A stretch of 64,000 nt of DNA from an uncultured virus (IMG/VR IMGVR_UViG_3300017642_000092). Taxonomy: Duplodnaviria > Heunggongvirae > Uroviricota > Caudoviricetes. The notes beneath the pieces were generated by a model that was not told the origin of the DNA, did no database searches, and saw nothing but the letters and a program-made list of their open reading frames with translations. This document shows, in pieces, positions 2,441 to 63,597 of this stretch. Position numbers and translations under genes: made by a program. The DNA is taken from IMG/VR virus record IMGVR_UViG_3300017642_000092; one strand, 5' to 3'. The first letter of the stretch is position 1; each line of letters begins with the position of its first letter.

Positions 2441-2926
2441 TTAGATGAAGTCCGAGAGACGGTCGCGGAGCCGCGCCATAAGCTGGCGCTTCCGGTAGTT
2501 GAGGGTGGACTGCCGGATGCCGAGTACGGTGGCAATTTCCCGCTCGGTAGCGCCCTGCGCGATCAGCTCACAGATGCGGCGGTTGTCCGAATCAAGCTCC
2601 TCAAGAGCTTTGAACAGTTCCTCCAGCAGGAGCTTGTATGCTACGACTTCTGCCGGGTCCGGCGCGGCGTCGGAAGGCTCGTACCCCTCATCTTCAAAGG
2701 CGTCGAGGGAGAGAACGCTGCCGGTGCGGAGTTTGTCACACTGGCTGCAATCGCCGGTGCAGCGGCTTCCGTTTTCACCGATGCAGCGTTTTCCGCGTTC
2801 TTGCCGCTTGTGTTCCGCCCATGCCGGGCGCTTGTAGGCCCGGTAGACCTCCTCCGAAACCGGAACCTGCTGACCGTTGATGTCGATAAAATACTGTTTC
2901 TCATCTTTACTATTACTTGTCTTCAT
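2441..2926 (-). CDS. Sigma-70 region-4 / ECF-like sigma factor of element A
   Basis: C-terminal HTH (TEREIATVLGIRQSTLNYRK), Cys cluster and SLDAF motif. Paralog of 59838..60350. Confidence 0.8.
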   Translation of the reverse strand: MKTSNSKDEKQYFIDINGQQVPVSEEVYRAYKRPAWAEHKRQERGKRCIGENGSRCTGDCSQCDKLRTGSVLSLDAFEDEGYEPSDAAPDPAEVVAYKLLLEELFKALEELDSDNRRICELIAQGATEREIATVLGIRQSTLNYRKRQLMARLRDRLSDFI

Positions 2927-3130
2927 TTTTTCACCTCGTTGGCCGAGGCGATGAATGACAGGTACCTGGTTCAGACTGGTCTGGCCGGACCTTTCCCGAC
3001 GAAAAAAGAGCGCACAAAGGAAAGGTCTCTGCTCCAGGCTTTTAAACTGCCCCTGTGGGGAGTTTTCAAAGTCTTTATGCAGTACCTGCCTTCATGCGCA
3101 TCTCGGGCCGATATCAATTTGTCAAAGTAC
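2923..3130 (-). ncRNA. Putative structured cis-regulatory leader of sigma gene A
   Basis: Long stem-loop and an anti-RBS hairpin. Shares motifs with 60348..60572. Confidence 0.5.
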
Positions 3131-3283: not shown

Positions 3284-3408
3284 CGGAACTGACAGTTCCG
3301 GTTTTTGGCATAAAAAAAGGGCCTTGCGGCCGCGTCTTTTTAACGCTGACCACAGGGTCCTCACAATTCCTTATTGTTCGTCGTCTTTTTCCGGAACTGC
3401 CACTTCCG
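3284..3408. promoter_or_regulatory. Pair of 17-bp palindromic operators CGGAACTG-N-CA(G/C)TTCCG
   Basis: Perfect palindrome at 3284-3300 and a 1-mismatch copy at 3392-3408, upstream of the sigma leader. Confidence 0.65.
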
Positions 3409-3450
3409 GTTTTTTGAAAATTTGTCCGAAACTTTTTTATTTTTCTTTTC

Positions 3451-9520: not shown

Positions 9521-11006
9521 CTTCTTCACCACCCTTCAGAATTTGGGTCAGCAAATCATACTCGCGTGCAACCGAATCGCTATTTTCCTGCCATTGAAGA
9601 ACCACCTCTTCAAGGTGTTCCTGGTTGGCAGAGTCCTCTTGCGCATCACGCACGTATAGTGAGATACTGAGCTTGCTGTTGTTCGCCTGAATCTGAGGTA
9701 TGGTTGCAACCGCAGAGAATCCGGGAATTTCCTCAAATGAGGTGTATGTATCGGCTATTTTCTGAATGTGGATATCTTCCAGATAGCTCGACGCATTTTT
9801 GCGAGTGACCTCTTCCCGTGCATTAATGAACAGCACCTTACCACGCCGGTTAACAGGTTTGTTCATACGACAGATAACAATACATGCCTCCATAGGTGAG
9901 TTGAAGAACAGGTTTTTTCCAATGCCAATTACGCATTCCACCAAGTCATCCTTCACAAGGTTAATCCGCATATCTTTTTCCTCGTCGCGGAACAGGATGC
10001 CATGAGGAAAAAGAATCGCGCATCTGCCAGTTTTCGGGTCAAGACTTTTTAGAATGTGCTGGAAGAAAGCGAAGTCTGCACGGTTTTGCGGCGGAGTGCC
10101 TAAAAAGTTCCGACCATATTTATCGCTTTCAAATGACGTCCGGTCCCACTGCTTAATGGAGTAGGGAGGATTGGCGAGAATTAGGTTGAACTGTTTGAGC
10201 TTTCCGCGTTCTGTAAATGCCGGATACTTTAATGTATCGTCATTGACAATATTAAAATCTTTAATGCCGTGGAGAAACAAGTTCATACGCCCGATTGCCG
10301 CCGTCAAGGAGTTGATTTCCTGGCCATAAACCGCAACATTGCGCCATTCCTTGCCTTGGCCTTTAAGATAAGCGATACATGATATCAGCATACCGGCACT
10401 GCCACATGTGGGATCGTAGACGGATTCTCCGGATTCTGGCTTGAGCATCTCCGTCATTAAATGAACCACAGTGCGGTTTGTATAAAACTCCTGCGCAGTA
10501 TGGCCACTGTCGTCGGCAAATTTTTTAATTAGGTACTCATACCCGTTGCCAAGCTCATCTTCGGGGCAGTTGGCAATGGAGAGGGTTTCACTGCTGAAAT
10601 GCTCTAAAAGGTCTTTTAGCAGGCGGTCTGGGAGGCGGTTTTTGTTTGTCCATGCAGCGTCACCGAAGATACCTTGGAGCTTTTCGGAGTTTGCTTTTTC
10701 TATAGCTCTAAAGGCCTTCACAATGGCTTTTCCAACGTCTTGCGAAACGTTACGAACATCATTCCAATGCGCACCATTGGGAATCAAAAAGCTGTGGTTT
10801 TCCTCCCATTCAAGTGCGTCGACGTCGTCACCGTACTCCTTGCGAATGGCCTCGCATTCTTCGTCGAAGACATCACAAATACGTTTGAAAAACAACAGTG
10901 GGAAAATATATTGCTTATACGCGCCTGCATCAACGCTTGTCCGCAATAGGACCGCAGATCCCCAGAGATAGGTTTCTAGCTCGCTTTGCGTAATCTTATT
11001 GCTCAT
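9507..11006 (-). CDS. hsdM: Type I R-M methyltransferase subunit 2 (NPPY; probable m4C)
   Basis: EFYT, DPTCGSAGML and NPPY motifs. Confidence 0.92.
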   Translation of the reverse strand: MSNKITQSELETYLWGSAVLLRTSVDAGAYKQYIFPLLFFKRICDVFDEECEAIRKEYGDDVDALEWEENHSFLIPNGAHWNDVRNVSQDVGKAIVKAFRAIEKANSEKLQGIFGDAAWTNKNRLPDRLLKDLLEHFSSETLSIANCPEDELGNGYEYLIKKFADDSGHTAQEFYTNRTVVHLMTEMLKPESGESVYDPTCGSAGMLISCIAYLKGQGKEWRNVAVYGQEINSLTAAIGRMNLFLHGIKDFNIVNDDTLKYPAFTERGKLKQFNLILANPPYSIKQWDRTSFESDKYGRNFLGTPPQNRADFAFFQHILKSLDPKTGRCAILFPHGILFRDEEKDMRINLVKDDLVECVIGIGKNLFFNSPMEACIVICRMNKPVNRRGKVLFINAREEVTRKNASSYLEDIHIQKIADTYTSFEEIPGFSAVATIPQIQANNSKLSISLYVRDAQEDSANQEHLEEVVLQWQENSDSVAREYDLLTQILKGGEEDEAL

Positions 11007-13416
11007 TGATGTAACCTCCCTTTGCCAGAAGCTTTTTCAGGATAGCTTCGTTCTCACGTACGCTCTGAATGGCTTCAAAGTATTGTTTTCGCACCTCGGC
11101 GGGAGGTGTAATTTCTTGTTTGGTTTTCTCGATGTATGTTCCAACTGCCAAGGTGTACCCGGCTTTGCGGATATCCGCCTTCGTCACGACTTTAGAGTAA
11201 TCTATTTTATCGTCGTATGCTTGGTACAGATCATAAGTCTTTTGGATATCGTCGTCTGTCATGATGTTCTGTGCCCGCTGAGGAGTATAGATTCTGGAGG
11301 CGTCAATCAGACAAACCCGGCCACGGTGGTCAACCGATTTCTTGTTATTCAGGAAGAGAATGCAGGCGGAGACTCCGGTGCTGTAGAAAACGCCACTAAC
11401 CAGGGTGATGACGCATTCCAACATATCTGATTCTACCAGCTGCTCACGCATTTTGCCTTCCTTGCCGCCATGGAAAAGAACACCCTGTGGAAGGACAACT
11501 GCGCATTTCCCAGACTTCGGGTCCATGGATTTCACCATGTGCTGGAGCCATGCAAAATCTGCGCTTGAATCGGAAGGACAGCCCCAGAGGTTACGGCCAT
11601 ACTTGTCTGATTCAAATTGCGTTGAACCCCATTTTTCCAGTGAAAAGGGCGGGTTGGCTAAGACACAGTTGAATGTCTGTAATTTTCCGTGCGCTACAAA
11701 GCTAGGCTGGCGCAAAGTGTCACCTTGCATGATTTTGAAATCATGGGCGCCGTGAAGAAAGAGGTTCATTTTTGCTATGGCAGATGTGGAGAGGTTCTTC
11801 TCTTGCCCATAAATTCTGCCATACGTCATTTTGTCGTCGTGAATGTGACGTATGGCTTCTATGAGCATCCCACCTGTTCCACAGGCGGGATCGTATACGG
11901 TGTCTCCGGGCTTTGGCTGCATCAGCATAACCATCAACTTCACGATAGAACGTGGTGTATAAAACTCGCCCGCGTTCTTCTTGGACAGGTCTGCAAATTT
12001 CTTAATGAGGTATTCGTAGGCATCGCCCATGACGTCGGCGGAATAGTTGTTGTTGCCCACCTTGAGTTTTGACATGTGCTCAACGAGGTCCTTCAAGCGC
12101 TCATCAGTAAGCTTTGTTTTATCGGTCCATGTAGCATCATCAAAGCTGGAGAATACGCCGCTCAAGGTTTCAGGGTTAGCTCGCTCAATCCCATTCATGG
12201 CAGAGACGATTGCCTTGCCAACATTGGTAGTTGTATTGCGAACATCTTCCCAATGGCAGTTCTCAGGAATGATAAAGCTATGCTGCTCCGGGAAGGAGGC
12301 GTAATCAACGTCTCCGCCGGATTCCTCCAGTGCTAGTGCCGTTTCCTCATCATATACATCCGAAATACGTTTGAAAAAGAGAATTGGAGTGACATAGCTC
12401 TTATATTCGTCTTGGTTGATAGGGCCTCGAAGGATATTGCAGGACTCAAACAAGTGATTAAACAGCTGTTTGCTGGTTGTTTCTTCACTTTCAACCGTAG
12501 AATTTTTCAGTTCTTTGTCGGCAACTTCCACCGAAGATAGCATCATGTCAGCACGACTGCCTGTATCAACCTTGGCCTCTTTGCTGCGCTCAAAGGCAAC
12601 GCTCTTATCATCCTGTACCTTTTCCATCTTGGAAGGGTATTTATTTTCAAACTCCACCAGAATTTTCAGAAGGCGTTCATCCAGGAACGTTAGTGCGTGC
12701 TTCCTTATGTCCGTGGGAATTCCGTAGTAAGCCTCTGCGATTCCACCCGTTATGGCTGCAATGGTGTCACTATCGCCACCAATGGAGATTGCATTTCGTA
12801 TGGCATCTTCAAAGCTGGTAGCCTCGAAGAATGCTTCCAGTGCTTGAGGAACAGTGTCTTGGCAGCTTTCGTTGAACTTATAGCTATCCCGTATACCATC
12901 GAGTGTGAAATCAATAGAGTAGTAGTTTTGGGTGATGTAATCTTGGATTTCAAGTAGGCTTTTTCCAGAACGAGCAAGGAAGATTGCAACAGATGTTGCC
13001 TCGGCTCCTTTGATTCCCTCGGGATGATTATGCGTAATCTCAGTGACTGCCTTTGACAGAGTCTTGGCCTCATCGAGGCTTCGAGCAACAAATCCACACG
13101 CGCTGACGCGCATTGCTGCTCCGTTGCCATAGCTGCCGTATGGCTGGGGGTTGTTTGAATGCACCCACTTTCGGAAGCTTTCGCCATACCCGCAGGTGGG
13201 ATACAGTCGGCCGATACTCTGCATATATGTAACGGCGACCTTAGCCAGGTTGCTATAGTCCGACTTGCATTTCAAAAGGGCTTTAGCAATTGCTAATGAC
13301 ATGACAGAGTCATCCGTTACGTTGCATTTATAAGTCAGAAACTCAAACTGTTTGTTTCTGTGGTTGTGCCACTCAAAACGGGAACCAACGATGTCCCCGA
13401 TAATTGCTCCTAACAT
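10996..13416 (-). CDS. hsdM: ADP-ribosylglycohydrolase (DraG/ARH-like) fused to type I methyltransferase subunit 1 (NPPF)
   Basis: N-terminal GDIVGSRFE, TDD, GNGAAMR, THNHP and GGDSDTIAAITGG. C-terminal GEFYTP, DPACGTGGML and NPPF. Single uninterrupted ORF. Confidence 0.9.
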   Translation of the reverse strand: MLGAIIGDIVGSRFEWHNHRNKQFEFLTYKCNVTDDSVMSLAIAKALLKCKSDYSNLAKVAVTYMQSIGRLYPTCGYGESFRKWVHSNNPQPYGSYGNGAAMRVSACGFVARSLDEAKTLSKAVTEITHNHPEGIKGAEATSVAIFLARSGKSLLEIQDYITQNYYSIDFTLDGIRDSYKFNESCQDTVPQALEAFFEATSFEDAIRNAISIGGDSDTIAAITGGIAEAYYGIPTDIRKHALTFLDERLLKILVEFENKYPSKMEKVQDDKSVAFERSKEAKVDTGSRADMMLSSVEVADKELKNSTVESEETTSKQLFNHLFESCNILRGPINQDEYKSYVTPILFFKRISDVYDEETALALEESGGDVDYASFPEQHSFIIPENCHWEDVRNTTTNVGKAIVSAMNGIERANPETLSGVFSSFDDATWTDKTKLTDERLKDLVEHMSKLKVGNNNYSADVMGDAYEYLIKKFADLSKKNAGEFYTPRSIVKLMVMLMQPKPGDTVYDPACGTGGMLIEAIRHIHDDKMTYGRIYGQEKNLSTSAIAKMNLFLHGAHDFKIMQGDTLRQPSFVAHGKLQTFNCVLANPPFSLEKWGSTQFESDKYGRNLWGCPSDSSADFAWLQHMVKSMDPKSGKCAVVLPQGVLFHGGKEGKMREQLVESDMLECVITLVSGVFYSTGVSACILFLNNKKSVDHRGRVCLIDASRIYTPQRAQNIMTDDDIQKTYDLYQAYDDKIDYSKVVTKADIRKAGYTLAVGTYIEKTKQEITPPAEVRKQYFEAIQSVRENEAILKKLLAKGGYINEQ

Positions 13417-16435: not shown

Positions 16436-19400
16436 ATGTGGCATATTCCAATAAACGCAACCGAGCATTCGTTGCTATATGCCACCGAGACGTTTGAACA
16501 ATTCGAGGGGCTGCTGCAGTTCTTTGAAAAGCTGGATAACGAGGAGAACGACGCTTGGTGGGAGAAGTTAGCAAACGACATCGGGCGTTCCGACTCAGCG
16601 GATTTGTTTGAAACCGAGAGGTATAGCGACAGGGACTACGACGACGAATATTCCGAAGTGACTGCCGAAGAGCAAGATGGCAAGCCAAAGGAGACAGTGA
16701 TCATTATGGAGGCAACAACCGCAACCGATCTCGACGCTGAGGCAACATTTGAAATCGAAAGGGATATGCGGATTTCCCTTCGCTCGCAGCGGGGCGGCAA
16801 GCTGTCTGTACAGGATTATGTCGAGGGTATCGCCGCACGGTATCCTCTACTTGGCGCGGCTGTTTTAGAGGAAAACAGCCGTAAAGCGATTGAGAAAACG
16901 GCTCTCCAAGCCATTAGAATTTTGCTTGAGCATAACAAAGTTTATAACTGGGCTTACCTCTCCATATTTCTGACGATGATACAGTACACCAAAGTATGGG
17001 ATAGAGGTGACAATGCCGGCTTCTGGGCGTACATTGCGGAGCAGTTTGGGTATAAAGATTCGCAGTCTATGTACAGCGTTCTCACCACCTCGGTAAAAGA
17101 GGCTTGCCGTGGCTACAATCGCTTTTTTGTTGTTGATCCGAACGGTGATAACAACTATTACTCCACCGTCTTGGCTCACTCAATTTCTCCAAACAAGAGC
17201 GTTTTCGCGCTGTTTGATTTCCTCGTAAAGTTCTACAAAAACAATCTGGACTGCTCGGTCTACGAGGGCGACCCCGCCATCGGAAGAATGGTCGGTGTAT
17301 TGCGTGACCGCTGTAACGGCGCGTCCGTTGAGCAGGACGATGACATTCGAGGCAATGTCTACGGCATTCAGGTTGGCATGAGAGTATTGCTGACCACCCG
17401 CCCCGGCTATATGCGGCACTTTCTCACAAAGGTGCTTCAGAAAATTGGGTTCTTGCTCGACGGAAACGAACTGTCTGGCAAGGACTATGTGGACGAAGTC
17501 CTCACACAATGGTACATCGGGAAACTGCTCGAACCTGCGACATCAGCGACGACATCAGTTAAGAGAAGCACCCCTACCCACAAACGCACGACTGAAATAG
17601 CGTTCTCCTACGGGAAAATCAAAGTTGAGTACATACTTGACGATGACGGCGAACCGGCGATACGAATTCCGTCAATCCGTCTGGCAAGCCGCGAAAACCC
17701 CGTGCTGAGGATTTACTCGAACACCGATATGATCTATCAGATCACAATCGGCATATACGGAAACGATTACGCCGCGACCTCCGAGGAGACAATAGTTCCG
17801 CTATCGGATATTTCTGACGCTGACTTTATCCGGCTCAACGCCGAAATAAAGATTGACGGCAAAGAAATTTATACTTCCGGAAACAGCTTGAACGTTACGG
17901 CTCTGCTGTTCAAGGACAGCAAACTTCAAACAGGAAAAACAATCGATGGAGGCAATTATGTACTGTTCGCGCCCAAAGCGGTCAATATTAAGTTCCAAGG
18001 CAATGTTGAAAGAGAACGCCGTTCATATTTCGCGCAACTCATCAACATCTATATTCAGGGCGAGGTTTCGGTATTTGCAGACGGTAGATTGCTCTTTTGC
18101 TCACGACCGCCGGAAGGCTCGCTTCGTTTCCGCTTGCAACAAGGACAGGTGGAGTATGTAGTGCGCGGCATCGCTTACCCCCTGTTCAGCCGTAATGAGT
18201 TTTCAGTCACGGCTATCGGTGTATTCGACGGCAAGAATGTAACAGCCACGACCCAGAGTGGTGAAAAACTAATCATCCAGAGTCGCGACACGAATTTGTG
18301 TCAATTCTCACTTCCTGCCGAAAACGGCGGTTATACCATCACTTTGACAGACGAAAACACGGGAAGAGTGTTTGATGAGGCGAGATTCTATATCGTCGAT
18401 AACTACTCCGTCGCCTTTGACAGCGATTATTACCTTGAATCCGCTGAGGACGGCAATGTGGTCTTTGAGGTTGATAGTCAAAAGTATGAGCTGTCGCTGA
18501 TGGGCTTCACCTTAAAAGTGAAAATCCCTGTCGGTAACGGTGACATTCAGATTCAAATACCCAGAATCCGCTTGCTCTTGGATGGCAATCCGCTTCCGAC
18601 AGAGGCGGTCTGGAAAGGTGAAATTTCTCCGAGCAGCACTCTTCGTGTCTTGTGTCCAGAAACCGTTGCCCTATCACTTTCGTTTGCGAATTCGACGATG
18701 CCTAGAAGAAGCATAATGGGCGGCTTTGATTACGCGATTGGAAACGCCGTGCAAGCGTATGACGGAGATGCGAACAAGTGTTCAGTCAATTTGCACGTTG
18801 CCGGCGACAACCTTCGAATGCTCGATGTCGTGTTTAAAATGTCGCTGACCGAGCCGCCACAGTTCAACTTAACCGAAAGCACCCTGACTTGGCTGAATAG
18901 TCATTCCTTTATGGGAGACAAAAGCACAAGACTCAAGTTCGTGTTTAAGCCGCGATATGGCGAAGCGGTCGCACTGACTATTGGTCAAGGCGAAAAAATC
19001 CTCAGCGAAGACTTCCCGACTATATCAGAGTGGTACCGTTATCAGGTCATCGCCCAAATCGATACGGCATTCGGCGTGTCTGAAACGAAACTCGCCGAAG
19101 GTACCGTTATTTTCGGGGATAAGTTCGCCGTGATATTCCGTGGCGAAATACTGCGAATTGAGAAAGTCCTGCTCGATGGAGAGCCTATCGAAATAAAGCC
19201 GGTGTATGCTGATGAAATCACCTATGTCGGGATAGAAAATCTTGGTTACACCGACCTCAGCGGTGATTACGCCCATTACACGGCGAAGCTGTTCTTTAAG
19301 ACGATGAATGACGATGTTTACTTTAGAGACCTGAACCCTGTGGATATTTACCTCGTAAATGAAAAAGCGGGGCGCCTGCACATTTCATTTAACGACGGCG

Positions 19401-19522
19401 AGGGCTTGTTCATAGACAAGAGCAGCGGTTATAAAGCCGAGCTATACAAGCATACCGACCCGCCGCAAAAGCTCGCCCGATACTTTTTCTTCCCGGATTT
19501 CTTTGAATATGAGGTACAGTAA
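16436..19522 (+). CDS. Large hypothetical protein, DruH-like partner of the DUF1998 helicase
   Basis: 1028 aa with a helical N-terminal region (FWAYIAEQFG) and a beta-rich C-terminus. Lies 12 bp upstream of the helicase gene. Confidence 0.6.
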   Translation: MWHIPINATEHSLLYATETFEQFEGLLQFFEKLDNEENDAWWEKLANDIGRSDSADLFETERYSDRDYDDEYSEVTAEEQDGKPKETVIIMEATTATDLDAEATFEIERDMRISLRSQRGGKLSVQDYVEGIAARYPLLGAAVLEENSRKAIEKTALQAIRILLEHNKVYNWAYLSIFLTMIQYTKVWDRGDNAGFWAYIAEQFGYKDSQSMYSVLTTSVKEACRGYNRFFVVDPNGDNNYYSTVLAHSISPNKSVFALFDFLVKFYKNNLDCSVYEGDPAIGRMVGVLRDRCNGASVEQDDDIRGNVYGIQVGMRVLLTTRPGYMRHFLTKVLQKIGFLLDGNELSGKDYVDEVLTQWYIGKLLEPATSATTSVKRSTPTHKRTTEIAFSYGKIKVEYILDDDGEPAIRIPSIRLASRENPVLRIYSNTDMIYQITIGIYGNDYAATSEETIVPLSDISDADFIRLNAEIKIDGKEIYTSGNSLNVTALLFKDSKLQTGKTIDGGNYVLFAPKAVNIKFQGNVERERRSYFAQLINIYIQGEVSVFADGRLLFCSRPPEGSLRFRLQQGQVEYVVRGIAYPLFSRNEFSVTAIGVFDGKNVTATTQSGEKLIIQSRDTNLCQFSLPAENGGYTITLTDENTGRVFDEARFYIVDNYSVAFDSDYYLESAEDGNVVFEVDSQKYELSLMGFTLKVKIPVGNGDIQIQIPRIRLLLDGNPLPTEAVWKGEISPSSTLRVLCPETVALSLSFANSTMPRRSIMGGFDYAIGNAVQAYDGDANKCSVNLHVAGDNLRMLDVVFKMSLTEPPQFNLTESTLTWLNSHSFMGDKSTRLKFVFKPRYGEAVALTIGQGEKILSEDFPTISEWYRYQVIAQIDTAFGVSETKLAEGTVIFGDKFAVIFRGEILRIEKVLLDGEPIEIKPVYADEITYVGIENLGYTDLSGDYAHYTAKLFFKTMNDDVYFRDLNPVDIYLVNEKAGRLHISFNDGEGLFIDKSSGYKAELYKHTDPPQKLARYFFFPDFFEYEVQ

Positions 19523-19534
19523 GGAGATGCGCTA

Positions 19535-22500
19535 ATGCTTAATCCAGTAATCCTGTCAAGAGCAATTAAGGACACATTTGCCGACTATGTAGCGACAACG
19601 CTGTCCATAGCGGACGAGCGATACGCCGAACTACTAAAAACAGAGTTGCGGAAAGACGGCATCATAGCTAAGGGCCCATACCTGGAACTCGGCGATGCCT
19701 ACAAAACAGGTGCAACCATCCGCGAGTTGATTGCCGACGGTGTAATGACTCCTTTATTTGAAAAGTTCGGGTGGGGTTTCAAACTCAGCCGTCCGCTCTA
19801 TGTCCACCAAGAAAAAGCAGTCCGCGCCGCCGCTAACGGCGACAACATAATTGTCACTACGGGAACCGGTTCAGGTAAGACGGAGTGCTTCTTAATGCCT
19901 ATCGTGAATGCTCTCTTGCGTGAGCAGGAAACGGCAGGGCACCTTGACGACAGTGTGAGGGCGATTGTCATTTATCCGATGAATGCCTTGATTAACGACC
20001 AAGTGAAGCGTCTGCGTGAAATATTCGTAGACAGCGATATCACATTCGGTGTGTATAACGGCAATACCGAGCAAACCGAAAAAGCCGGGCGGATAAAATA
20101 CCGTACTACATATGGCTTTGAACCTATGCCAAACGAGCGGGTGTCCCGTGACATAATGCGTGAAAAACCGCCGCACATCCTTATCACAAACTACTCAATG
20201 CTCGAATATATGTGTATTCGCCCGAACGACGACGCCGTATTCCGTAACGCAAAATTGAAGTTCGTAGTTTTGGACGAGGCTCATGTTTATAAAGGAGCAA
20301 CAGGCATTGAAGCCTCTATGCTCGTTCGCCGCGTGGAAACGAGGTTGACCGAGGAGGGGCAAAGTCCGCAGTATATTTTGACAAGCGCAACGCTCGGCGA
20401 TGAAAGCAGCGACCCACAGATTTTTGCTTTCGGCGAAAGGCTCTGCGGACACTCTTTCCAGTCGATCGTTCGTTCAATACCAATTAAACACAGCGTTCCG
20501 GAATCCACCCGCACACTGTCATCTGAGGAAATAGCGGCGTTGAAAGACCTCGCAGATGAAAATCTGTTTGATATTTGTAACGGAAGCACGCAGTATCATA
20601 AAATTCGCGCTATTGCAAACGAACCGCTTACTCTTGCTGAGATTGCGGAAAAGACGGGTATGCCGGAAGGCGAACTGGTCACTTTTGTCGCAGCTTGCGT
20701 CCGCGCTACCGATGGGAATGGCGTACCGCTTGTGAGAGCCAGATATCACCTCTTTGTCCGTGCGCTTGAAGGTGCGTATATTACGCTTACCCAGCCATAT
20801 TCTGTGTCACTCATTCCCGCAACGGAGATTAATGGGCAGATGGTGTTTGAATGCGCCACCTGCACGGATTGTGGACGCCTTGCCATTATCGGTGTGAACG
20901 ACAAAAAAAGTGGGAAGCTGAGACTCCCCGAAAACAGCACCGACCCCAACGCCGAGTATTTCCTCTTGGAAGATGAAGAAGAAGGCGTAATGACCGACGA
21001 CGAGACGGAAACACCTCCTGATGAGTATTTAGTCTGTGCCAAATGCGGCACCATCAAGCATATAGGAGACAAGAACATTTGCGACTGTATGGACGAGTTC
21101 GGCGTCAAGGTTACAAAGGCACAGAAAAGCAAAGAGAGCGGAATCGTTCGCTGTCCGGCTTGTTCCTACGGCGAACTACGTCAATTCTACCTTGGCAGCG
21201 AAGCGGCCACCGCTGTTCTCGCTACCGCCTTGTATGAGAATATGCCAAGTGAAAAAACACGGCAGTTCCTGTGCTTTTCCGATAGCCGAGGCGACGCCGC
21301 TTTCTTTGCTCCTTACATGGAGCGAACCTATAGAGACTTCCTGCGCCGGCGCGGGATATGGTATGTTGCCGAACAGCACCGCGAAGAATTACAATGTGAA
21401 CCGTGGACACTGGGAACATTTGCTGATGAACTCGCGCGATATTTTGATGTAAACAAGACCTTTGCGGTTCTCGGCAAAGATGAGACCTTGGCACCCATCA
21501 GCAGACGCAACGCATGGATTGCTCTAATCAGCGAGATGTATTCCGCCCGCCGTCCCAGCAGTCTGACGTCGTTGGGTGCAGTTTCAATTATGCCGGCCTG
21601 CAATGCAAAATTCGCTCCTGCATTTGCCGCCAAATATAATTTGACCACAGAGGAGGCGAAGGCGTTACTCGACTTGCTGTTAATGGATGTGGTATTCCAT
21701 GGAGCGATTCAAGAGCCGTCCAAAACACCACTTGACGGCGAGGACTTGGAGATGATTTTTTACTCGTCCACCAGAAAGCTTCTCGTTCGTTGCAAAACAG
21801 GCAAAGAGTCGGCAAACACTATGGGTTGGCTTCCGCGGACACAGAAAAACGGACGGTTTTACGCTAATGGCCGTATACGACGCCTTGTATCCGCATTGGG
21901 CGTTACGGAAGAGGAGGCATATAAAATTGCCGAAGACTATTTCATGCTTCTCACCGAAAACGATGTAATGAAAACGCAGAAAGGCCGGGGCGATGGTCGT
22001 TTCCTTTCGGTTGAGGACTTTGTCATATCTGTGCCGAGCGAAACCAATCTCTATATTTGCGATATGTGCGGTCGTGTTACGGTTATGAACTTCAAAGACC
22101 GATGTGCCTACCCCCGGTGCAACGGGAGACTTATTGCCGTATCCCCTGAAAAGCTTCAGGCGAATAATCACTATGCCAGTTTGTATTCAAAAGACGACCT
22201 TGAGCCGTTCTATATCCGCGAACATACCGCGCAAATTGAGAAGAACAATGCCCGCAGGTATCAGGAGCAATTCCTTAATGGCGAAATAAACGCCCTAAGC
22301 TGCTCGACAACCTTTGAAATGGGTGTCGATATCGGATCTTTAGAGTCAATCTTTCTCCGCAACACACCTCCGTCCCCGGCAAACTATGTTCAAAGAGCAG
22401 GTCGTGCTGGTCGTGATTTACGCTCGGCGGCATTTACGTTGACCTATGCAAAATTGTCATCCCATGATATTACATTTTTCGGTCGCCCGACAGAAATGAT

Positions 22501-24055
22501 TTCCGGCAAAATAAAAGCCCCTGCTTTTGAAATCAGGAATGTGAAAATTGTTCTGCGGCATATCTACGCCGTGGCGATCTCGCATTTCTTCAGCCAGAAT
22601 ACCGATGTTTACAACAGTAATGATGCAGACATATTCCTTAATGGTAATGGATATGAGCGGCTTTGCGAATTTCTTCATGAGAAACCTACCGTGGTCCAGG
22701 AATATCTTCATAGGTGTATTCCCACAGAATTATGCGAAGTGCTTGGTGTTGATACATTCTCGTGGGTTGAACAGTTAATTGGTGAGGACGGCACGCTTGC
22801 TATTGCCGTGAATGACTTCCGTGACCTCACGGCTTGGTTTGCAGAGCAAATTGATATTGCCGCAAAGGAAAAGCGGTATCAGGATGCCGCACGCTTTGAG
22901 CGGCTTCTTAAAGACCACCGCCGCTCCACAACTGAAGGAGACGGTTATAAAAAGACGGATTTGATTGACTTCCTCGTGCATTCGGGCGCTTTGCCTAAAT
23001 ATGGCTTCCCTGTGGATGTTGTAGAACTGAAGCCAAACTTGCTAAACGACACAAAGCAGAATGTTGAGCTTCAGCGAGACCTCCAGCTTGGCATATCGGA
23101 ATACGCTCCCGGAGCGGAGGTAGTCGCCGACGGCAATATTTATCGTAGTCGCTACATAGCGAAAGACCGCCGAAAGACCGCTGACTGGGAGATTTATTAC
23201 ACCGCTGAATGCCCGCAATGCCGGGTTATCAACTTCAGTAAGAAACCGGTTGAAAGTGCGCCTTGTGTGGCTTGCGGTACTACCATAGACAGCGGTTGGA
23301 AAAAGAATATCGAACCAAGGAAGGGCTTTATCGTTGGCAACGACCCAAACGACATTGTCCCAGCCGGAAGCCGGAAGCCGCGAAAGTATCACCGTGGTGA
23401 CATCATCTACTTGGGAGATGCAGAGCGCCACGAACTTGGGCGAAGCACCTTCTATTTCGGCGAGCATCAAGTTGTGCTTCAGTCCACCGCAAACGACTCT
23501 CTGATGATAAGCTGTGACACGGAGTTTAATGTCTGTAGCTGCTGCGGCTTTGCAAAGAGCCGTAAGGAATCGAAGAATTACAGCTTTATTGTCGAAGAGA
23601 AGCACAAAACCCCATATGGGCGAGAATGCTCAAATACAAAGCTGTATCCATACAAGCTATCGCATATTTTCAAAACGGACGTTGTCCAACTGACGTTTTC
23701 TGACAATGCCGATTTTGGGACTATTCTTTCCGTGATGTACGCCCTTCTTAGAGCTACCTCACAGGTTCTGGACATAGAAAGTACCGACATCAACGGATGC
23801 CTTTACGCTTCGAACGGTAATATCCAGTATTCAATTATTCTCTATGACAGCGTTCCCGGCGGAGCAGGTCACATACACCGTTTAGCCGCAGATGAGAGCA
23901 TATTCCAGAGCGTTGTCCGCAAGGCATACGAAATCTGTTCAGAATGCAAATGCTCGCCGTCTTGCTACAAGTGTCTCCGCGACTACTATAATCAGGAGTG
24001 GCACCGTGTGCTGAACAGGAGTGCGGCAGCGGAGTTTTTGAAACAGTACCTATGA
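19535..24055 (+). CDS. SF2 DEAH helicase with Zn fingers and C-terminal DUF1998 (DruE-like)
   Basis: TGTGSGKTE, YPMNALINDQ, DEAH, SAT, TTFEMGVDIG and QRAGRAGR. C-terminal YDSVPGGAG...CKC-x3-CYKC. Confidence 0.88.
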   Translation: MLNPVILSRAIKDTFADYVATTLSIADERYAELLKTELRKDGIIAKGPYLELGDAYKTGATIRELIADGVMTPLFEKFGWGFKLSRPLYVHQEKAVRAAANGDNIIVTTGTGSGKTECFLMPIVNALLREQETAGHLDDSVRAIVIYPMNALINDQVKRLREIFVDSDITFGVYNGNTEQTEKAGRIKYRTTYGFEPMPNERVSRDIMREKPPHILITNYSMLEYMCIRPNDDAVFRNAKLKFVVLDEAHVYKGATGIEASMLVRRVETRLTEEGQSPQYILTSATLGDESSDPQIFAFGERLCGHSFQSIVRSIPIKHSVPESTRTLSSEEIAALKDLADENLFDICNGSTQYHKIRAIANEPLTLAEIAEKTGMPEGELVTFVAACVRATDGNGVPLVRARYHLFVRALEGAYITLTQPYSVSLIPATEINGQMVFECATCTDCGRLAIIGVNDKKSGKLRLPENSTDPNAEYFLLEDEEEGVMTDDETETPPDEYLVCAKCGTIKHIGDKNICDCMDEFGVKVTKAQKSKESGIVRCPACSYGELRQFYLGSEAATAVLATALYENMPSEKTRQFLCFSDSRGDAAFFAPYMERTYRDFLRRRGIWYVAEQHREELQCEPWTLGTFADELARYFDVNKTFAVLGKDETLAPISRRNAWIALISEMYSARRPSSLTSLGAVSIMPACNAKFAPAFAAKYNLTTEEAKALLDLLLMDVVFHGAIQEPSKTPLDGEDLEMIFYSSTRKLLVRCKTGKESANTMGWLPRTQKNGRFYANGRIRRLVSALGVTEEEAYKIAEDYFMLLTENDVMKTQKGRGDGRFLSVEDFVISVPSETNLYICDMCGRVTVMNFKDRCAYPRCNGRLIAVSPEKLQANNHYASLYSKDDLEPFYIREHTAQIEKNNARRYQEQFLNGEINALSCSTTFEMGVDIGSLESIFLRNTPPSPANYVQRAGRAGRDLRSAAFTLTYAKLSSHDITFFGRPTEMISGKIKAPAFEIRNVKIVLRHIYAVAISHFFSQNTDVYNSNDADIFLNGNGYERLCEFLHEKPTVVQEYLHRCIPTELCEVLGVDTFSWVEQLIGEDGTLAIAVNDFRDLTAWFAEQIDIAAKEKRYQDAARFERLLKDHRRSTTEGDGYKKTDLIDFLVHSGALPKYGFPVDVVELKPNLLNDTKQNVELQRDLQLGISEYAPGAEVVADGNIYRSRYIAKDRRKTADWEIYYTAECPQCRVINFSKKPVESAPCVACGTTIDSGWKKNIEPRKGFIVGNDPNDIVPAGSRKPRKYHRGDIIYLGDAERHELGRSTFYFGEHQVVLQSTANDSLMISCDTEFNVCSCCGFAKSRKESKNYSFIVEEKHKTPYGRECSNTKLYPYKLSHIFKTDVVQLTFSDNADFGTILSVMYALLRATSQVLDIESTDINGCLYASNGNIQYSIILYDSVPGGAGHIHRLAADESIFQSVVRKAYEICSECKCSPSCYKCLRDYYNQEWHRVLNRSAAAEFLKQYL

Positions 24056-57542: not shown

Positions 57543-58118
57543 TCAGTTCAAGAACTCGTCGTCATCATCGGTGGCGAAGTCGGACTCGGCCGATGCCTTG
57601 CCGCCGAGAGGCTCACCATCGCGGAGCTTCTGCAGGTTGTTGAGGCCACAGGCGATGCCCTTGTTGCCGTTGCTGTTAAATGCGTAGAAGCTGATGCTGG
57701 CGCGGCCATACACACCGGAGTAAACTTCGGAGCGGGTCAGGACGGGATTGCGGTCGGCATCCACGATGCCGGGAGCCGTGGTCGCGTTGGCGTTGATGAA
57801 GTAAGCGTTCGCGTAAGCCTCATCATCGGGACGTTCTGTATCACCATCGCGCAGGGGCGTTTTAAGTGCGGCCATCGGAGGCACGGACTTGCCATTGCCC
57901 TTGAGCTTGGCCTCGCCTTCGTGGTAAGCCGCCTCAATCGCTGCTTTGATCTTGGCGACCGTCTTGGTGTCGGACTTCGGAATGATGAGGCTGACCGAGA
58001 ACTTCGGCGTGCCGCCGTTGATGGACTTGGCCTCCCAGACGTTGGCGTAAGACCAGCGGGTGTCGGGACCAGTGATGACCTTCATCGGGTTGTTTACCTT
58101 ATTTGTGCTGTTATTCAT
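57543..58118 (-). CDS. DUF2815 family ssDNA-binding protein
   Basis: Same motifs as 99..674. Confidence 0.9.
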   Translation of the reverse strand: MNNSTNKVNNPMKVITGPDTRWSYANVWEAKSINGGTPKFSVSLIIPKSDTKTVAKIKAAIEAAYHEGEAKLKGNGKSVPPMAALKTPLRDGDTERPDDEAYANAYFINANATTAPGIVDADRNPVLTRSEVYSGVYGRASISFYAFNSNGNKGIACGLNNLQKLRDGEPLGGKASAESDFATDDDDEFLN

Positions 58119-59250
58119 AATCGTTTTCCTCCATAAAATCATTTTTGGCTGTGTTCATCGCCGGACGCTTATCGCTCTCCAGCACGAGCGTGGGTTTGCC
58201 TTGCGGTTTTTCGATGTACGCCGCGAGGATTTCGTCAAAGCGGGATTTGCCGAGCAGTTTCTGCATTGCGGTGACGCCCAGTAGCTTGCGCTCATAGGGG
58301 TCGATACCTATGCTTTCAACAGCGGCGGCAACGAGAGCATCGTTTGTGTATTTGCGGTTGGAACGGCCCTCGACCAACTTATAGCCATGCCACTCCTTGC
58401 CGCTGACCGCCTGCTGTAGCGCGTAGTCCTTGATATCCGATGCCCATGCAACGATATCGTCTACGCGGGTGAGGATTTCTTCGACCTCCTCATCGGTGAG
58501 CAGGGGCGGCAGCTTGAAGTCGTAACGGGCAAGCTCCATGTTGGCGTCCGCTCTGGCACGGCAGTCGTGCTTTGCCTTGCAGAAGCCGCACCATTCGCCG
58601 CAGAGGAAGTTGCCGTCACCGGCGAAAGCAAGATCAGCTGTGGGCTTGAGCACCTCGTCCGCCCAGCGGTAAAGTTCAGCCTTCGAGAGCTCGTAGGTGC
58701 TGACGTTGTCGCGGCGTGGCTGGTAGATGGTCATGCGTACCGAGTCGATATCATAGATACCGTCGAACAGTTCCAGCGCACCGAGCGCGTAGCACTGCAT
58801 TTGCGGGTTTTCGGTCGCATCGACCAAAACGCCGAGACCGTGCTTATAGTCGATGACCTGCAGGGTGCCGTCCGCGATGATGATGCAGTCGGCGGTACCG
58901 AAGCCGGACTCTACCCAGTGTGAGAAGTCCACCCGCTGCTCGATGAGGACAACGGGGTCGGCGCAGTTCTGCTTCGCCGTCTCCACCTGTTCAAGCACAT
59001 AGGCTGAATAACCATTGGCGCAGTCGCTCATTTCCTCGTTGAACCATGTCAGGTTCTCGGTCGGGTCAGTGGCCTCCATGCCCAGCGCCCGGCGGAGCTT
59101 ATACTCACAGAGCGCATGGGCGTCGGTGCCCTCGGCAGCGTAGTCGCTGCCCTTGTCGTCGTAGCTCTCGCAGAGCCGAGCTGACGGCGGGCAGTGCAGC
59201 CAGCGGTCGGAGCTGGATGCAGAGAGAATTGCGTGTCCTTTAGGTGGCAT
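58111..59250 (-). CDS. DUF2800 family PD-(D/E)XK nuclease
   Basis: HAILSASS..RWL.CPPS, FGTAD, IDYK.G, NPQM..YALG and WCGFC motifs. Confidence 0.9.
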   Translation of the reverse strand: MPPKGHAILSASSSDRWLHCPPSARLCESYDDKGSDYAAEGTDAHALCEYKLRRALGMEATDPTENLTWFNEEMSDCANGYSAYVLEQVETAKQNCADPVVLIEQRVDFSHWVESGFGTADCIIIADGTLQVIDYKHGLGVLVDATENPQMQCYALGALELFDGIYDIDSVRMTIYQPRRDNVSTYELSKAELYRWADEVLKPTADLAFAGDGNFLCGEWCGFCKAKHDCRARADANMELARYDFKLPPLLTDEEVEEILTRVDDIVAWASDIKDYALQQAVSGKEWHGYKLVEGRSNRKYTNDALVAAAVESIGIDPYERKLLGVTAMQKLLGKSRFDEILAAYIEKPQGKPTLVLESDKRPAMNTAKNDFMEENDYE

Positions 59251-59837: not shown

Positions 59838-60350
59838 TTAGAACATATCCGGGTACTCGCGCTGAATCGTCTGTGCCGCTTTTTTGAGGCGAGATAAGAA
59901 GGTGGTGCGGGAAATACCGATGATACCGGCAATTTCGGTGTCAGTCAGCCCCGCAAGGCGAAGCTCGCCGATGCGCTTGGCTTCCGGCATGATTTCTGCA
60001 AGTCTGTCGAACAGGTGCTCCAGCACGAGCTTGTCCGTTACGACCTCTTCAATGCTGGGAACGGTGTCCTCCAGCTTGTCCAGCATGGTGGTTTCATCGC
60101 CGTTCTCATTCTCAATGGTGTAATCCAGAGAATGCACATCACCGGCGGAGTGATACGGGCAGACGAGACAGTCGCCGTCGCAAGCCCATGTTTTGCTCTT
60201 GGGGCACTGGCACTGACCGTGGTTTTGAGCGCGGTCGCGGGTAGCCCAGATATCGCGGTAGTAGCCGTAATACTGTTCTTTCGTTACCTCAACCCACTGC
60301 TTGAGGCGAGGAATGTAGACCTTGTAGTTTTTGCTCTCGTTGACTTCCAT
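59838..60350 (-). CDS. Sigma-70 region-4 / ECF-like sigma factor of element B
   Basis: TDTEIAGIIGISRTTFLSRLKK HTH, CDGDCLVC and SLDY motifs. Confidence 0.82.
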   Translation of the reverse strand: MEVNESKNYKVYIPRLKQWVEVTKEQYYGYYRDIWATRDRAQNHGQCQCPKSKTWACDGDCLVCPYHSAGDVHSLDYTIENENGDETTMLDKLEDTVPSIEEVVTDKLVLEHLFDRLAEIMPEAKRIGELRLAGLTDTEIAGIIGISRTTFLSRLKKAAQTIQREYPDMF

Positions 60351-60572
60351 TTTGTTTCCTCCTGTGATGCGCCGCCGAGGGTGGGCGGTGGAGGAAACAA
60401 AATGAGGGTCTGCATCCGATGGACACAGACCCCGTTTCGCCAAAAATGAGTGCACGAAACTAAGGTGGCGGTGTACATCGGAGCCCCGGGAGCGGTCTTT
60501 ATCACCGTTCCGGGAAATCCTTATGCAACCTCCACCGTCTCATGGCCACTCGACGATGTGATTTTTTCAAGC
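60348..60572 (-). ncRNA. Putative structured cis-regulatory leader of sigma gene B
   Basis: A perfect 15-bp stem sequesters GGAGGAAACAAAATG. Nested stems upstream. Shares motifs with 2923..3130. Confidence 0.55.
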
Positions 60573-60580
60573 GCCTAATT

Positions 60581-60609
60581 TTGACAGGCACTTTTTGTGC
60601 TTTTATTGT
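60581..60609 (+). promoter_or_regulatory. Possible sigma-A promoter for the XRE-XRE-hsdM-hsdS operon
   Basis: TTGACA-17-TATTGT with a GCAC-N5-GTGC palindrome in the spacer. Confidence 0.5.
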
Positions 60610-60766
60610 AATTTACCAGTTTGGAATAAGCCAACGAGCGAATTGCATGGCAATATTCCCTAAATATATTTGCATTTGCGCTGGTAAAATAGAGAAATTC
60701 GTAGTAGAATGTAATTATGCGTCACGGAATAGTTTATTCGATGTGAGAATACAGGAGGAGAGCCCC

Positions 60767-61375
60767 ATGCCCCTTTCGTCTGATACTATTAGAGAACGCT
60801 TGCGGTTGACTTTTGGAACCGAATCGCAAGAAGTTATTGCAGGAAAATTGAATATGTCACAGGGCAATGTCAGCAAGCTGTTATCCGGCTCACAGATGCC
60901 GGCCTTAGATACGCTGTATTCCATTTCTGAAAAGTACGGAGTATCTGTAGATTGGTTGCTCGGCAGATCCGATCAGGAGAAGATTCCCAGCGCGGACAGT
61001 CTTTCGTCGTATTCTGTAGCTGCAGCTGTTATCACCGGCATTGTGCAGAGAGGTTCTAAAATGCAGGATGACGGTAAAAACAAATCAATTTCCATTGAAA
61101 TTGAAGATCCGATATTAAAAGCACTAATAAGAAAAAGCCTTGTCCTTTCCAAAACGGACAGCGAGCTGTACGCCGACTGGAAAAAAACAAAGCTTTCTCT
61201 CTTTGATGATAAAACATTAATTTGGAGCGCCACGTGGCATGAGCACGAGATATCTTTTCTTGCTTCTGAAGCTTCCATCGAAGCCGATTGGCTTGACGTA
61301 TGGGAAGCTGCCAAAAAATCAGAAGCAGACTACGATGCAATGATGGGCGACTGTGTAGGACCGTTTGGAAGGTGA
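60767..61375 (+). CDS. XRE-family HTH regulator 1
   Basis: SQEVIAGKLNMSQGNVSKLLSG...YGVSVDWLLG motif with AGGAGG RBS. Confidence 0.88.
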   Translation: MPLSSDTIRERLRLTFGTESQEVIAGKLNMSQGNVSKLLSGSQMPALDTLYSISEKYGVSVDWLLGRSDQEKIPSADSLSSYSVAAAVITGIVQRGSKMQDDGKNKSISIEIEDPILKALIRKSLVLSKTDSELYADWKKTKLSLFDDKTLIWSATWHEHEISFLASEASIEADWLDVWEAAKKSEADYDAMMGDCVGPFGR

Positions 61376-61382
61376 AAATACC

Positions 61383-62081
61383 ATGACCGAGTTAAAGAGG
61401 CAGGTCAGCAGACACTTAGCGGAAATATTCCATGGCGACACCCAAGAAATAACGGCCCGAAAGCTCAATACCACACAAGGCAATGTTAGCAAATGGGTCA
61501 GCGGTTCTCAGGTCCCGACAACAGATATGCTCTACGAAATAGCAAAGGCATATCAGGTGTCGGTTGACTGGATTTTGGGAATTAGCCCGCAAAAGGAAAT
61601 CGACGGTATTGTCCTTGAAAAGCTGACCTATGAACAGATTACACGAATTGTGGATGCACTAATTCAAAACAAGAACTTTTCCGTTCCTAATCTCGCAGAG
61701 CTTGCCCCTAACGAGGTTGAATATGAGGAAGATGAAAATGGAGATAGCGTGCCAACCACACCCGAACCGCAGTATGATTCTGACTACATAAAAGTGAATG
61801 ACCGTCTGTTGTCATACCTTCTCCGAAGAAGATATAAAATCCAACTCACCGGTGAAGATATGCTTGAAATGTGGAAAGAAAACAAGCTGCCCAACTTTAT
61901 GGGCCTGAAGCTTCTAAACTATAACGGAAGCGTGGAGGAAACCATTGATACCCGCAGTTGGTCGTCATTTGGCGACGCAGAATGGGTAGAATTGATAAAC
62001 GAACTGTCGACACTGACAGAAGCCGAATTACAGGAAATCATCAGAAAATCGAAGGAAAAGGATGGGACAAACGATGGCTGA
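61383..62081 (+). CDS. XRE-family HTH regulator 2 (paralog of regulator 1)
   Basis: TQEITARKLNTTQGNVSKWVSG...YQVSVDWILG motif. Confidence 0.88.
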   Translation: MTELKRQVSRHLAEIFHGDTQEITARKLNTTQGNVSKWVSGSQVPTTDMLYEIAKAYQVSVDWILGISPQKEIDGIVLEKLTYEQITRIVDALIQNKNFSVPNLAELAPNEVEYEEDENGDSVPTTPEPQYDSDYIKVNDRLLSYLLRRRYKIQLTGEDMLEMWKENKLPNFMGLKLLNYNGSVEETIDTRSWSSFGDAEWVELINELSTLTEAELQEIIRKSKEKDGTNDG

Positions 62082-63597
62082 AAATAATACCGCCGATATC
62101 GGATTTGAGAAAGAAATATGGGATGCCGCCTGCGTTCTCCGGGGCAATATGGATGCCTCTGAATACAAGAATGTGATACTCGGACTGATTTTTCTAAAAT
62201 ACATTTCCGATAGTTTTGAAGCAAGATATCAAGAATTGGTGAGCGAAGGAGACGGCTTCGAGGAAGACCGCGACGAATACACTTATTCCAATATCTTTTT
62301 TGTTCCATCCGGTGCCCGCTGGAAGGACATTGCAGCAAAAGCGCATGAGCCTGAGATTGGCAAGGTCATTGATGATGCAATGATCGCCATTGAAACAGAG
62401 AACAAGAAGCTAAAAGGAATCCTCCCCAAAAACTTCGCTCGCCCGGAGCTGGACAAGCGTAGACTTGGAGAGGTCGTGGATCTGTTTACCAATGTAAAGA
62501 TGACGGAAGGAACGGATGAAAAAGACCTTCTCGGCCGCACTTACGAATACTGTCTCCGCCAGTTTGCTGCACAGGAAGGCAAAAACGCAGGACAGTTCTA
62601 TACACCGTCCTGCATTGTTCGTACAATTGTTGAAATACTTCAGCCTTTTGATGGACGTGTATATGACCCCTGCTGCGGCGCTGGTGGAATGTTTGTCCAA
62701 TCGGCGGTGTTTATCAAGAATCATCAGGGTAATATTAATGACATTTCCGTATATGGCCAGGAATCGAACCCGACTACGTGGAAGATGGCAAAAATGAACC
62801 TTGCAATCCGTGGCATTGACTGCAACCTGGGCGAAATACCAGAGGACACCTTCCTCAATGATCAGCACCCCACTATGCGGGCAAACTATGTCATGGCAAA
62901 TCCGCCGTTCAACCTCACACCTTGGGGCGCAGATAAGCTGAAAGACGACCAGCGTTGGAAATTCGGCACGCCGCCTGCAGGCAATGCCAACTTTGCATGG
63001 ATTCAGCACATGATCTGGCATCTTGCCCCGGATGGAAAAATCGGTCTGGTGCTGGCAAATGGTGCGCTTTCCTCCCAAAGCGGTGGTGAAGGTGATATCC
63101 GTAAAAATATCATTGAGGCCGATTTGGTTGACTGTATCATTGCCTTGCCTACCCAGCTTTTCTATACGACCCAGATCCCTGTTTCCCTTTGGTTCATCTC
63201 CAAAGATAAAAAGTGCAAGGGAAAGACCCTGTTTATTGATGCGCGCAATATGGGAACAATGGTCACCCGTAGTTTGCGTGAGTTGACAGATGGTAGTGTT
63301 GACCCCGAAAAGAACGATATTGGCAAGTTGGCGGATACCTACAAGGCATACACAGAAGGCACCTTAGAAGATATAAAGGGTTTCTGTGCTGTAGTTGAAA
63401 CGGCTGAAATTGCTAAGCAGGACTATATCCTGACCCCAGGCCGCTATGTCGGCATTGAGGAACAAGAGGATGATGGCGAGCCCTTCGAGGAGAAGATGGC
63501 CCGCCTAACCTCTGAGTTGTCCGGGATGTTCACCAAGTCCCATGAATTGGAGGAAGAAATCCGTAGGAAGTTGGGAGCGATTGGGTATGAAATCTGA
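62074..63597 (+). CDS. hsdM: Type I R-M methyltransferase subunit
   Basis: GQFYTP, DPCCGAGGMF, NPPF and LTPGRYVG motifs. Confidence 0.95.
   Translation: MAENNTADIGFEKEIWDAACVLRGNMDASEYKNVILGLIFLKYISDSFEARYQELVSEGDGFEEDRDEYTYSNIFFVPSGARWKDIAAKAHEPEIGKVIDDAMIAIETENKKLKGILPKNFARPELDKRRLGEVVDLFTNVKMTEGTDEKDLLGRTYEYCLRQFAAQEGKNAGQFYTPSCIVRTIVEILQPFDGRVYDPCCGAGGMFVQSAVFIKNHQGNINDISVYGQESNPTTWKMAKMNLAIRGIDCNLGEIPEDTFLNDQHPTMRANYVMANPPFNLTPWGADKLKDDQRWKFGTPPAGNANFAWIQHMIWHLAPDGKIGLVLANGALSSQSGGEGDIRKNIIEADLVDCIIALPTQLFYTTQIPVSLWFISKDKKCKGKTLFIDARNMGTMVTRSLRELTDGSVDPEKNDIGKLADTYKAYTEGTLEDIKGFCAVVETAEIAKQDYILTPGRYVGIEEQEDDGEPFEEKMARLTSELSGMFTKSHELEEEIRRKLGAIGYEI

Follow-up and report, generated by a model that had tools for sequence, protein, structure and literature searches.

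Two related prophages in a 64,000-nucleotide stretch of DNA from an uncultured virus of the Caudoviricetes (IMG/VR record IMGVR_UViG_3300017642_000092; hereafter the window) carry members of one structured RNA leader family in front of the first gene of their early operons. Each leader is probably a cis-acting, two-state 5′ UTR of ∼ 210–250 nt on the first early (lytic) gene, with the choice between the two states made during transcription. In the proposed OFF state (fold 1), strand X would pair with strand Y in a long bulged hairpin that surrounds a variable apical hairpin; a second hairpin (T), terminator-like in B and most relatives, would follow, and the anti-RBS strand S5 would pair with S6 over the Shine–Dalgarno sequence (SD) and the AUG, hiding both. 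In the proposed ON state (fold 2), X would pair with S5 and the loop behind it, leaving SD and AUG free. Leader A (2924–3122) and leader B (60348–60572), both on the minus strand, share conserved patches that include UGCAUAA and a U-rich box.

Prophage B is complete, of siphovirus type, and occupies ∼ 24.2–61.4 kb of the window. Its early genes, on the minus strand, are in order the sigma-like gene (gene B, 59838–60350, 170 aa), a PHROG 408 gene, a DUF2800 nuclease, an Enc34-type ssDNA-binding protein and PolA, followed by a VapE-like primase/helicase, SNF2, HNH, terminase, portal, capsid and tail genes, an amidase and a serine recombinase. Prophage A is of the same type and its early end begins below 3.2 kb; its early operon likewise opens with a homologue of gene B (gene A, 2441–2926, minus strand, 161 aa, 33% identity). 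The DUF2800 gene is the third gene after each leader (58114–59250 in B, 803–1810 in A). A CI-type HTH gene (60767–61375, plus strand) diverges from gene B and has its own promoter-like site at 60581–60609. An HsdM-type methylase gene (62062–63594) adjoins the two HTH genes at this repressor end of prophage B.

Protein B combines an N-terminal part with four Cys residues and a C-terminus resembling sigma region 4. By sequence, the only feature detectable in proteins A and B is an HTH of region 4 type, where a sigma-70 family member would have region 2 as well, and all matches lie below curated cut-offs; the family of gene B, PHROG 13787, is annotated as ‘unknown function’. The N-terminal half has four conserved Cys residues, of which three reach at least 90% conservation and the fourth is invariant. 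The AF2 model of protein B (pLDDT 80.5) finds sigma factors as its best PDB matches, at TM values of only 0.28–0.41. A preliminary description of this DNA had named the product a master sigma factor. The sigma region 4-like domain stands, but with sub-cut-off matches and such TM values the designation ‘master sigma’ is not established; the protein is a sigma-like regulator, and the data go no further.

We assembled 131 loci encoding homologues of this protein, 96 of them in IMG/VR and 35 in GTDB genomes. The regions upstream of these genes divide into several classes that look unrelated, one of which, termed class I, contains the window leaders; an RBS-sequestering hairpin ends every leader inspected, whatever its class. 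A covariance model (R1) was built on the OFF structure from seven leaders of one subfamily from other phages, with no window sequence in it. In a 378-kb search, for which the model E-values are rough, R1 matched both window leaders over its full length: leader B at 60348–60558 (34.2 bits, E 7e-7) and leader A at 2916–3110 (23.0 bits, E 6e-4). Matches at E ≤ 0.01 were obtained in 44 of the 131 homologous loci. Scanning whole genomes with R1 alone gave matches in three of five genomes of one set and in 8 of 151 sampled genomes of one class. All 10 matches found by RNA only lie directly upstream of an ORF of 162–214 aa whose end resembles sigma region 4; tblastn and PHROGs assign these ORFs either to the PHROG 13787 type, like those of the window, or to PHROG 11138. 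The class I leader precedes two protein families. A blastn search of the leader against a phage database gave no match; on the covariance model matches, leaders A and B are members of one predicted RNA family.

Leader classes are exchanged like cassettes, as proteins 93% identical to that of gene B carry an unrelated leader. Four loci (L001–L004), in which the protein is 85–93% identical to protein B, have an unrelated, shorter leader class, a pattern suggesting that recombination has its boundary at the RBS or the start codon. The ORFs upstream of 26 class I loci are heterogeneous, which led us to reject a conserved upstream partner gene; six of them encode HTH DNA-binding domains (five Cro/C1-type, one HTH_17). 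The CI-like protein and the second HTH protein of prophage B have no homologue in any locus flank. ABC-three-component (ABC-3C) C-terminal domains occur in three genes upstream of class I leaders (L044:57–1049, L089:48–1040 and L141:79–1257).

The independent minimum free energy (MFE) folds of 29 class I leaders reproduce the parts of fold 1 in most cases. Leader B has an MFE of −116.7 kcal/mol (z = −7.6; 0/200 shuffles as good) and leader A one of −75.5 kcal/mol (z = −4.1; 1/200 shuffles as good). In leader B (minus strand throughout) folds and duplex energies place strand X at 60523–60556, the variable apical hairpin at 60480–60520 and strand Y, with the conserved U-rich box (∼ 60442–60459), at 60437–60478. 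The terminator-like hairpin and its U-rich tail cover 60395–60433, S5 with its inner hairpin and loop 60372–60404, and the RBS strand 60348–60362, where the SD (60358–60362) is separated by a spacer from the AUG (60348–60350). S5 would find its partner in the RBS in fold 1 and in X in fold 2. In leader A, on the same strand, the long hairpin (2996–3111) is made up of X (3079–3111), the apical hairpin (3036–3074) and Y with the conserved box (2996–3032); the anti-RBS/RBS region (2924–2962) comprises S5 (2943–2962), the RBS hairpin (2931–2951), the SD (2934–2937) and the AUG (2924–2926). The X:Y duplex amounts to −35.3 kcal/mol in B, where 0/24 cross-family partners are as good, and to −32.9 kcal/mol in A (1/28 cross partners as good). 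In leader B the SD is unpaired in 0.00 of the sampled fold-1 structures.

Covariation was evaluated on alignments guided by R1. Across 26 leaders, 88.2% of the cells of fold 1 are paired and 50 of its 61 pairs have changed on both sides, against 40–45% paired cells in slid controls; none of 500 shuffles scored as high, although shuffle controls overstate the significance here because the sequences are phylogenetically related. A less redundant set of 25 leaders, which includes the RNA-only matches, gave 87.0% paired cells, again with 50/61 pairs changed on both sides (0/500 shuffles as high; slid controls 38–47%). All 12 pairs of helices 6–7, in the apical hairpin, have changed on both sides. 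Structure-free alignment was less informative: RNAalifold on MAFFT alignments returned no structure for 29 leaders, because the variable parts were misaligned, and a partial ON-like consensus for 16, and single MFE folds projected onto MAFFT columns were too noisy to use. Covariance-model alignments therefore replaced them.

These results agree with much of what the preliminary description had proposed, namely a cis leader that is structured and conserved, lies on the mRNA strand and is positioned to gate the gene, a long stem enclosing an inner hairpin, a further hairpin, a last hairpin that pairs the SD and AUG, and pairing maintained through sequence change. The U-rich box that it listed is indeed conserved, but is predicted to form the 3′ strand of the basal long hairpin, paired with a segment 5′ of the stem as it was first drawn, and is not a free element. 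The boxA-like element was not borne out: the words differ in the closest relatives of B (L047, L098, L103 and L114) and in other lineages, and only an A-rich linker is kept.

This linker follows a small 5′ hairpin, P0, which the MFE fold of leader B places, linker included, at 60569–60593 (minus strand). In B-like relatives the sequences of the P0 stem differ with pairing kept, as read from the alignment by eye. Upstream lies a predicted promoter-like site (60605–60634, minus strand; TTGGCT, 18 nt, TACAAT; 9/12 matches), one of three such sites found in the leader B region versus 0.9 expected. A transcript from this site would begin ∼ 45 nt ahead of the long hairpin, and several relatives have −10-like hexamers 37–58 nt upstream of the hairpin. 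Of 24 public runs, the four RNA-labelled ones analysed consist of low-depth contigs that are probably DNA. An antisense promoter within leader B (plus strand, 60420–60447) was discarded: the site is within chance and its spacing, judged by eye, is not kept in relatives. A leader peptide was discarded as well, since the start-like codons in the box have no common frame across lineages (frames compared by eye).

Fold 2 is the MFE fold in 8 of the 29 class I leaders. To compare the two pairings of X independently of any alignment, we calculated duplex energies of each strand with its own partner and with partners from other families. For X:S5 the mean is −29.7 kcal/mol for self versus −21.0 kcal/mol for cross-family pairs (49/710 cross pairs as good); for X:Y it is −30.3 versus −23.1 kcal/mol (148/710 as good). 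The X:S5 duplexes of leader B (−36.2 kcal/mol) and leader A (−24.9 kcal/mol) are matched by 0/24 and 0/28 cross partners respectively. By these energies the lineage specificity of X:S5 is no weaker than that of X:Y. The type of SD also changes together with X, Y and S5, being GGAGG-like in B and its relatives and AAGGA-like in most others.

A second covariance model (R2) combined the seven seeds of R1 with the ON structure. R2 scored higher than R1 in 16 of 19 non-seed leaders outside the B-like family; leader A gave 31.3 bits with R2 versus 23.0 with R1, and leader B 20.2 versus 34.2 bits. In the R2 alignment, which includes one reverse-strand row, 88.6% of the cells of fold 2 are paired and 39/47 pairs have changed on both sides; a second leader set gave 87.6% and 40/47. 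For the X:S5 pairs alone the count in the R2 alignment is 18/22. An alignment fitted to a structure leans towards that structure. With the alignments exchanged, the ON fold keeps 74.8% of its cells paired on the OFF-fitted one and the OFF fold 75.7% on the ON-fitted one, with slid controls at 36–49%. Both predicted folds are thus supported by covariation and by the alignment-free comparison of self and cross duplexes.

In sampled structures the SD is unpaired in 0.22–1.00 of ON and in 0.00–0.25 of OFF structures, with the exception of L024 (0.41). The ON fold is predicted to be ∼ 16 kcal/mol less stable than the OFF fold in leader B and ∼ 4 kcal/mol less stable in leader A, within a range of −7 to +18 kcal/mol, all of these being crude values, since the constraints did not always yield X:S5. 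It is absent from 1000 sampled structures of leader B, where, given a difference of ∼ 16 kcal/mol, its formation would depend on a factor or on kinetic trapping.

The terminator-like hairpin of B has 13 pairs (60405–60433), and its U-rich tail is the start of the anti-RBS strand. In the alignment of 26 leaders the helix of hairpin T is 95% paired, with 8/9 pairs changed on both sides; at least seven of the nine pairs together with a U-rich tail are present in 19 of 25 members, B included. Leaders A and L013 have no terminator-like hairpin, the middle hairpin region of A (2957–2995, minus strand) lacking a U-rich tail. In one subfamily, the Y strand released in the ON state would pair with the 5′ arm of the terminator hairpin and so act as an antiterminator. 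This Y:T5 pairing is lineage-specific among L031, L044, L050, L080 and L089, where 0/22 cross pairs are as good. In the B family it amounts to 7 to 11 kcal/mol with 11–23 of 24 cross pairs as good, which is no better than cross-family pairing. Hairpin T is unformed in the sampled ON structures of those subfamily members that show the ON fold (L007, L031, L050, L080 and L093). Duplex energies support the putative antiterminator pairing in this subfamily only, and B lies outside it. The suggestion of an RNA switch or antiterminator in the preliminary description is accordingly retained in part: an alternative, RBS-freeing fold covaries, the boxA/antitermination reading is not supported, and antiterminator pairing has support only in a subfamily without B.

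We propose that the default co-transcriptional path leads to the OFF state, because X meets Y before S5 exists. Whatever prevents X from pairing with Y as the transcript is made would decide between the folds. Compared with a metabolite or a phage-specific protein, a kinetic or processing event or a general factor of the host seems the better candidate: every conserved nucleotide is paired in at least one fold, near-identical genes carry swapped leader types, and the upstream genes are variable. Candidate agents would be an RNA-binding protein, a helicase, an RNase or RNA polymerase pausing.

The strongest competitor to a two-state leader is one that silences only, by means of its terminator and RBS hairpin, the X:S5 complementarity being a by-product of a purine-rich, SD-like X and the RBS. 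The dominance of OFF in the predicted ensemble of B and the RBS hairpin in every leader class seen fit such a static insulator. X:S5 complementarity, however, runs well past the SD mimic into the hairpin loop and follows the changes between lineages in both window leaders and in most of its pairs (see above), and a permanently silent first lytic gene would make no biological sense in an intact prophage; we consider this explanation unlikely. A metabolite-sensing riboswitch, in which the long hairpin is the aptamer and its occupancy fixes X:Y (OFF), would account for the layout of an expression platform, with a closing helix that has alternative partners, a terminator and SD sequestration, and for a U-rich internal loop or bulge common to class I and the Rfam motif RF02960. 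Yet among 25 members, columns conserved to 90% or more are unpaired in both folds only at the AUG, and the apical hairpin varies in sequence and length, both of which speak against a metabolite pocket; there are no Rfam riboswitch matches either, and we regard a riboswitch as distinctly improbable.

Transcripts stopped at the terminator-like hairpin might alternatively be stable small RNAs acting in trans on other copies, in the manner of P1 c4 or P4 CI as RNAs of immunity or anti-immunity. X would give such a product an RBS-like strand and Y an anti-RBS-like one, and pairing specificity does differ between the co-resident prophages A and B. Complementary 12-mers elsewhere in the window are nevertheless about as frequent as chance predicts (5 versus ∼ 2 expected by our own estimate), the C4 family gives no match, A and L013 have no terminator, and the cis arrangement accounts for all observations, which makes a trans-acting product very improbable. 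Scarcely any weight attaches to an explanation at the DNA level, in which the palindromic parts would serve as operators or as a single-strand origin. In every lineage the 5′ part of X does form a partial palindrome, and leader B adjoins the repressor gene, but pairing joins segments as much as 200 nt apart, the SD and AUG among them, G–U pairs are frequent and strand-specific, and model scores on the reverse strand are much lower. A two-state leader acting in cis remains the reading we prefer.

A catalogued motif occupies the same position in related phages. RF02960 (DUF2800 RNA) is a candidate cis-regulatory motif (Weinberg et al., 2017; PMC5737381), and the main text of that paper does not mention it. 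Searching the whole window with Rfam 15 gave no match at gathering score, and at E ≤ 10 both leaders returned noise only, RF02960 being absent; the gathering score of RF02960 is 60.2 bits and our positive control, L023, reached 134.1 bits. RF02960 matches were found in 1/20 and 15/20 loci tested, at 112–149 bits. Like class I, the motif sits before the homologous gene, its end lying 41–48 nt short of the start codon in 16 of the 40 related loci tested, and upstream of a DUF2800, ssDNA-binding and PolA module; the window leaders share this DUF2800 operon and phage-like context. Common to both are also an RBS hairpin after the motif, a conserved 5′ strand complementary to the anti-RBS strand, and a closing helix with a U-rich box just before its 3′ strand. 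In L023 (1301–1501) and 15 further loci the conserved RBS-sequestering hairpin that follows RF02960 has −15 to −27 kcal/mol, and its anti-RBS strand is complementary to the strand of the motif's conserved inner hairpin. As the RF02960 model ends 41–48 nt before the AUG, it omits the RBS hairpin.

RF02960 differs from class I in its extra 5′ hairpin and its interior. Its consensus comprises a 5′ long hairpin, a closing helix round a conserved inner hairpin and a U-rich single strand, of which the folds of the window leaders share the closing helix and U-rich box only. RF02960 has no match at gathering score in four other class I loci either, and conversely our class I models, R1 among them, do not match RF02960 loci at E ≤ 1. 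With no Rfam match and RF02960 at the same position, the window leaders are therefore positional counterparts of the motif and not detectable members, and class I is a structurally distinct relative of the catalogued motif at the DUF2800 RNA position. The novelty claimed for the leaders is qualified to this extent: they have no Rfam match themselves, but RF02960 takes their place in related phages. A literature search for DUF2800 RNA, which covered titles, abstracts and the main text of PMC5737381, returned no article about it. For class I and RF02960 alike, the two-fold mechanism may be new.

Leader attenuators and riboswitch expression platforms of Firmicutes combine terminator/antiterminator control with SD sequestration. 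Class I resembles them in its mutually exclusive helices formed from consecutive segments, its terminator-like hairpin and its hidden SD. It differs in having no conserved leader peptide (frames read by eye) and no conserved ligand pocket, in that both strands of the sensor helix have alternative partners of their own, and in having an antiterminator in one subfamily only. The rpoS leader, opened by DsrA, RprA or ArcZ, is an example of ‘anti-antisense’ activation. There, as predicted for class I, an inhibitory stem hides the RBS of a transcription regulator and activation proceeds by pairing to the anti-RBS strand, but the activating strand of class I lies in cis and is itself locked in a hairpin.

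The com–mom system of phage Mu is a case of translational activation in which, as predicted for class I, a hairpin covers the place where a phage gene starts. Small ORFs encoding two-CxxC zinc ribbons are found just upstream of the leader in 15 related loci, one of them class I (the ORFs include L005:964–1146, L008:984–1193, L012:1230–1349, L019:1020–1208 and those of L034, L041 and L051). They differ from Com in that only three of eight tested reach Zn_ribbon_Com at all, and these below threshold (16–19 versus 22.9 bits), matches to many other zinc ribbons being sub-threshold also. These ORFs may encode translational activators in their own phages. A Com-like activator of the window leaders was rejected, because no zinc-ribbon ORF lies near either leader and the Com matches of the relatives are sub-threshold.

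To our knowledge, lytic commitment of temperate phages in gut and wastewater Clostridia is almost unknown. The model developed here predicts that the first lytic gene is guarded by a conserved, widespread bistable RNA, and proposes a concrete mechanism for an orphan Rfam motif, DUF2800 RNA, so far labelled only ‘cis-reg’. It is possible, if rather doubtful, that the leader and its sister RF02960 form a sensor, a second, RNA-level checkpoint on the lysis–lysogeny decision in a large group of temperate phages of Clostridia and Bacillota that is independent of the CI-type repressor. If so, the first lytic regulator would be made only after a host-wide signal has been read; the signal could be a protein, polymerase pausing, the activity of an RNase or helicase or, with lower likelihood, a small molecule, and the interchangeable leader cassettes would be alternative sensors. 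Should a defined signal flip the switch, it would constitute a new input into prophage induction and provide a compact ON/OFF module for Firmicutes engineering.

The region between prophages A and B (3454–24052) is a defence island with a type I restriction–modification set of one HsdR, three HsdM-type methylases and two HsdS. One HsdM protein is fused to an ADP-ribosylglycohydrolase domain (10999–13416). The island also encodes a 1506-aa DEAD helicase with an MrfA-type Zn-binding (MZB) domain (19535–24052) and contains large ORFs without a Pfam match at 3454–5412 and 16436–19519. Between the island and leader A lie two near-identical palindromes of 17–19 nt (3284–3300 and 3391–3409), each followed by a T-run; similar palindromes occur upstream of the related leader in L013. 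At this end of the prophage, those upstream of leader A could serve as operators or as bidirectional terminators.
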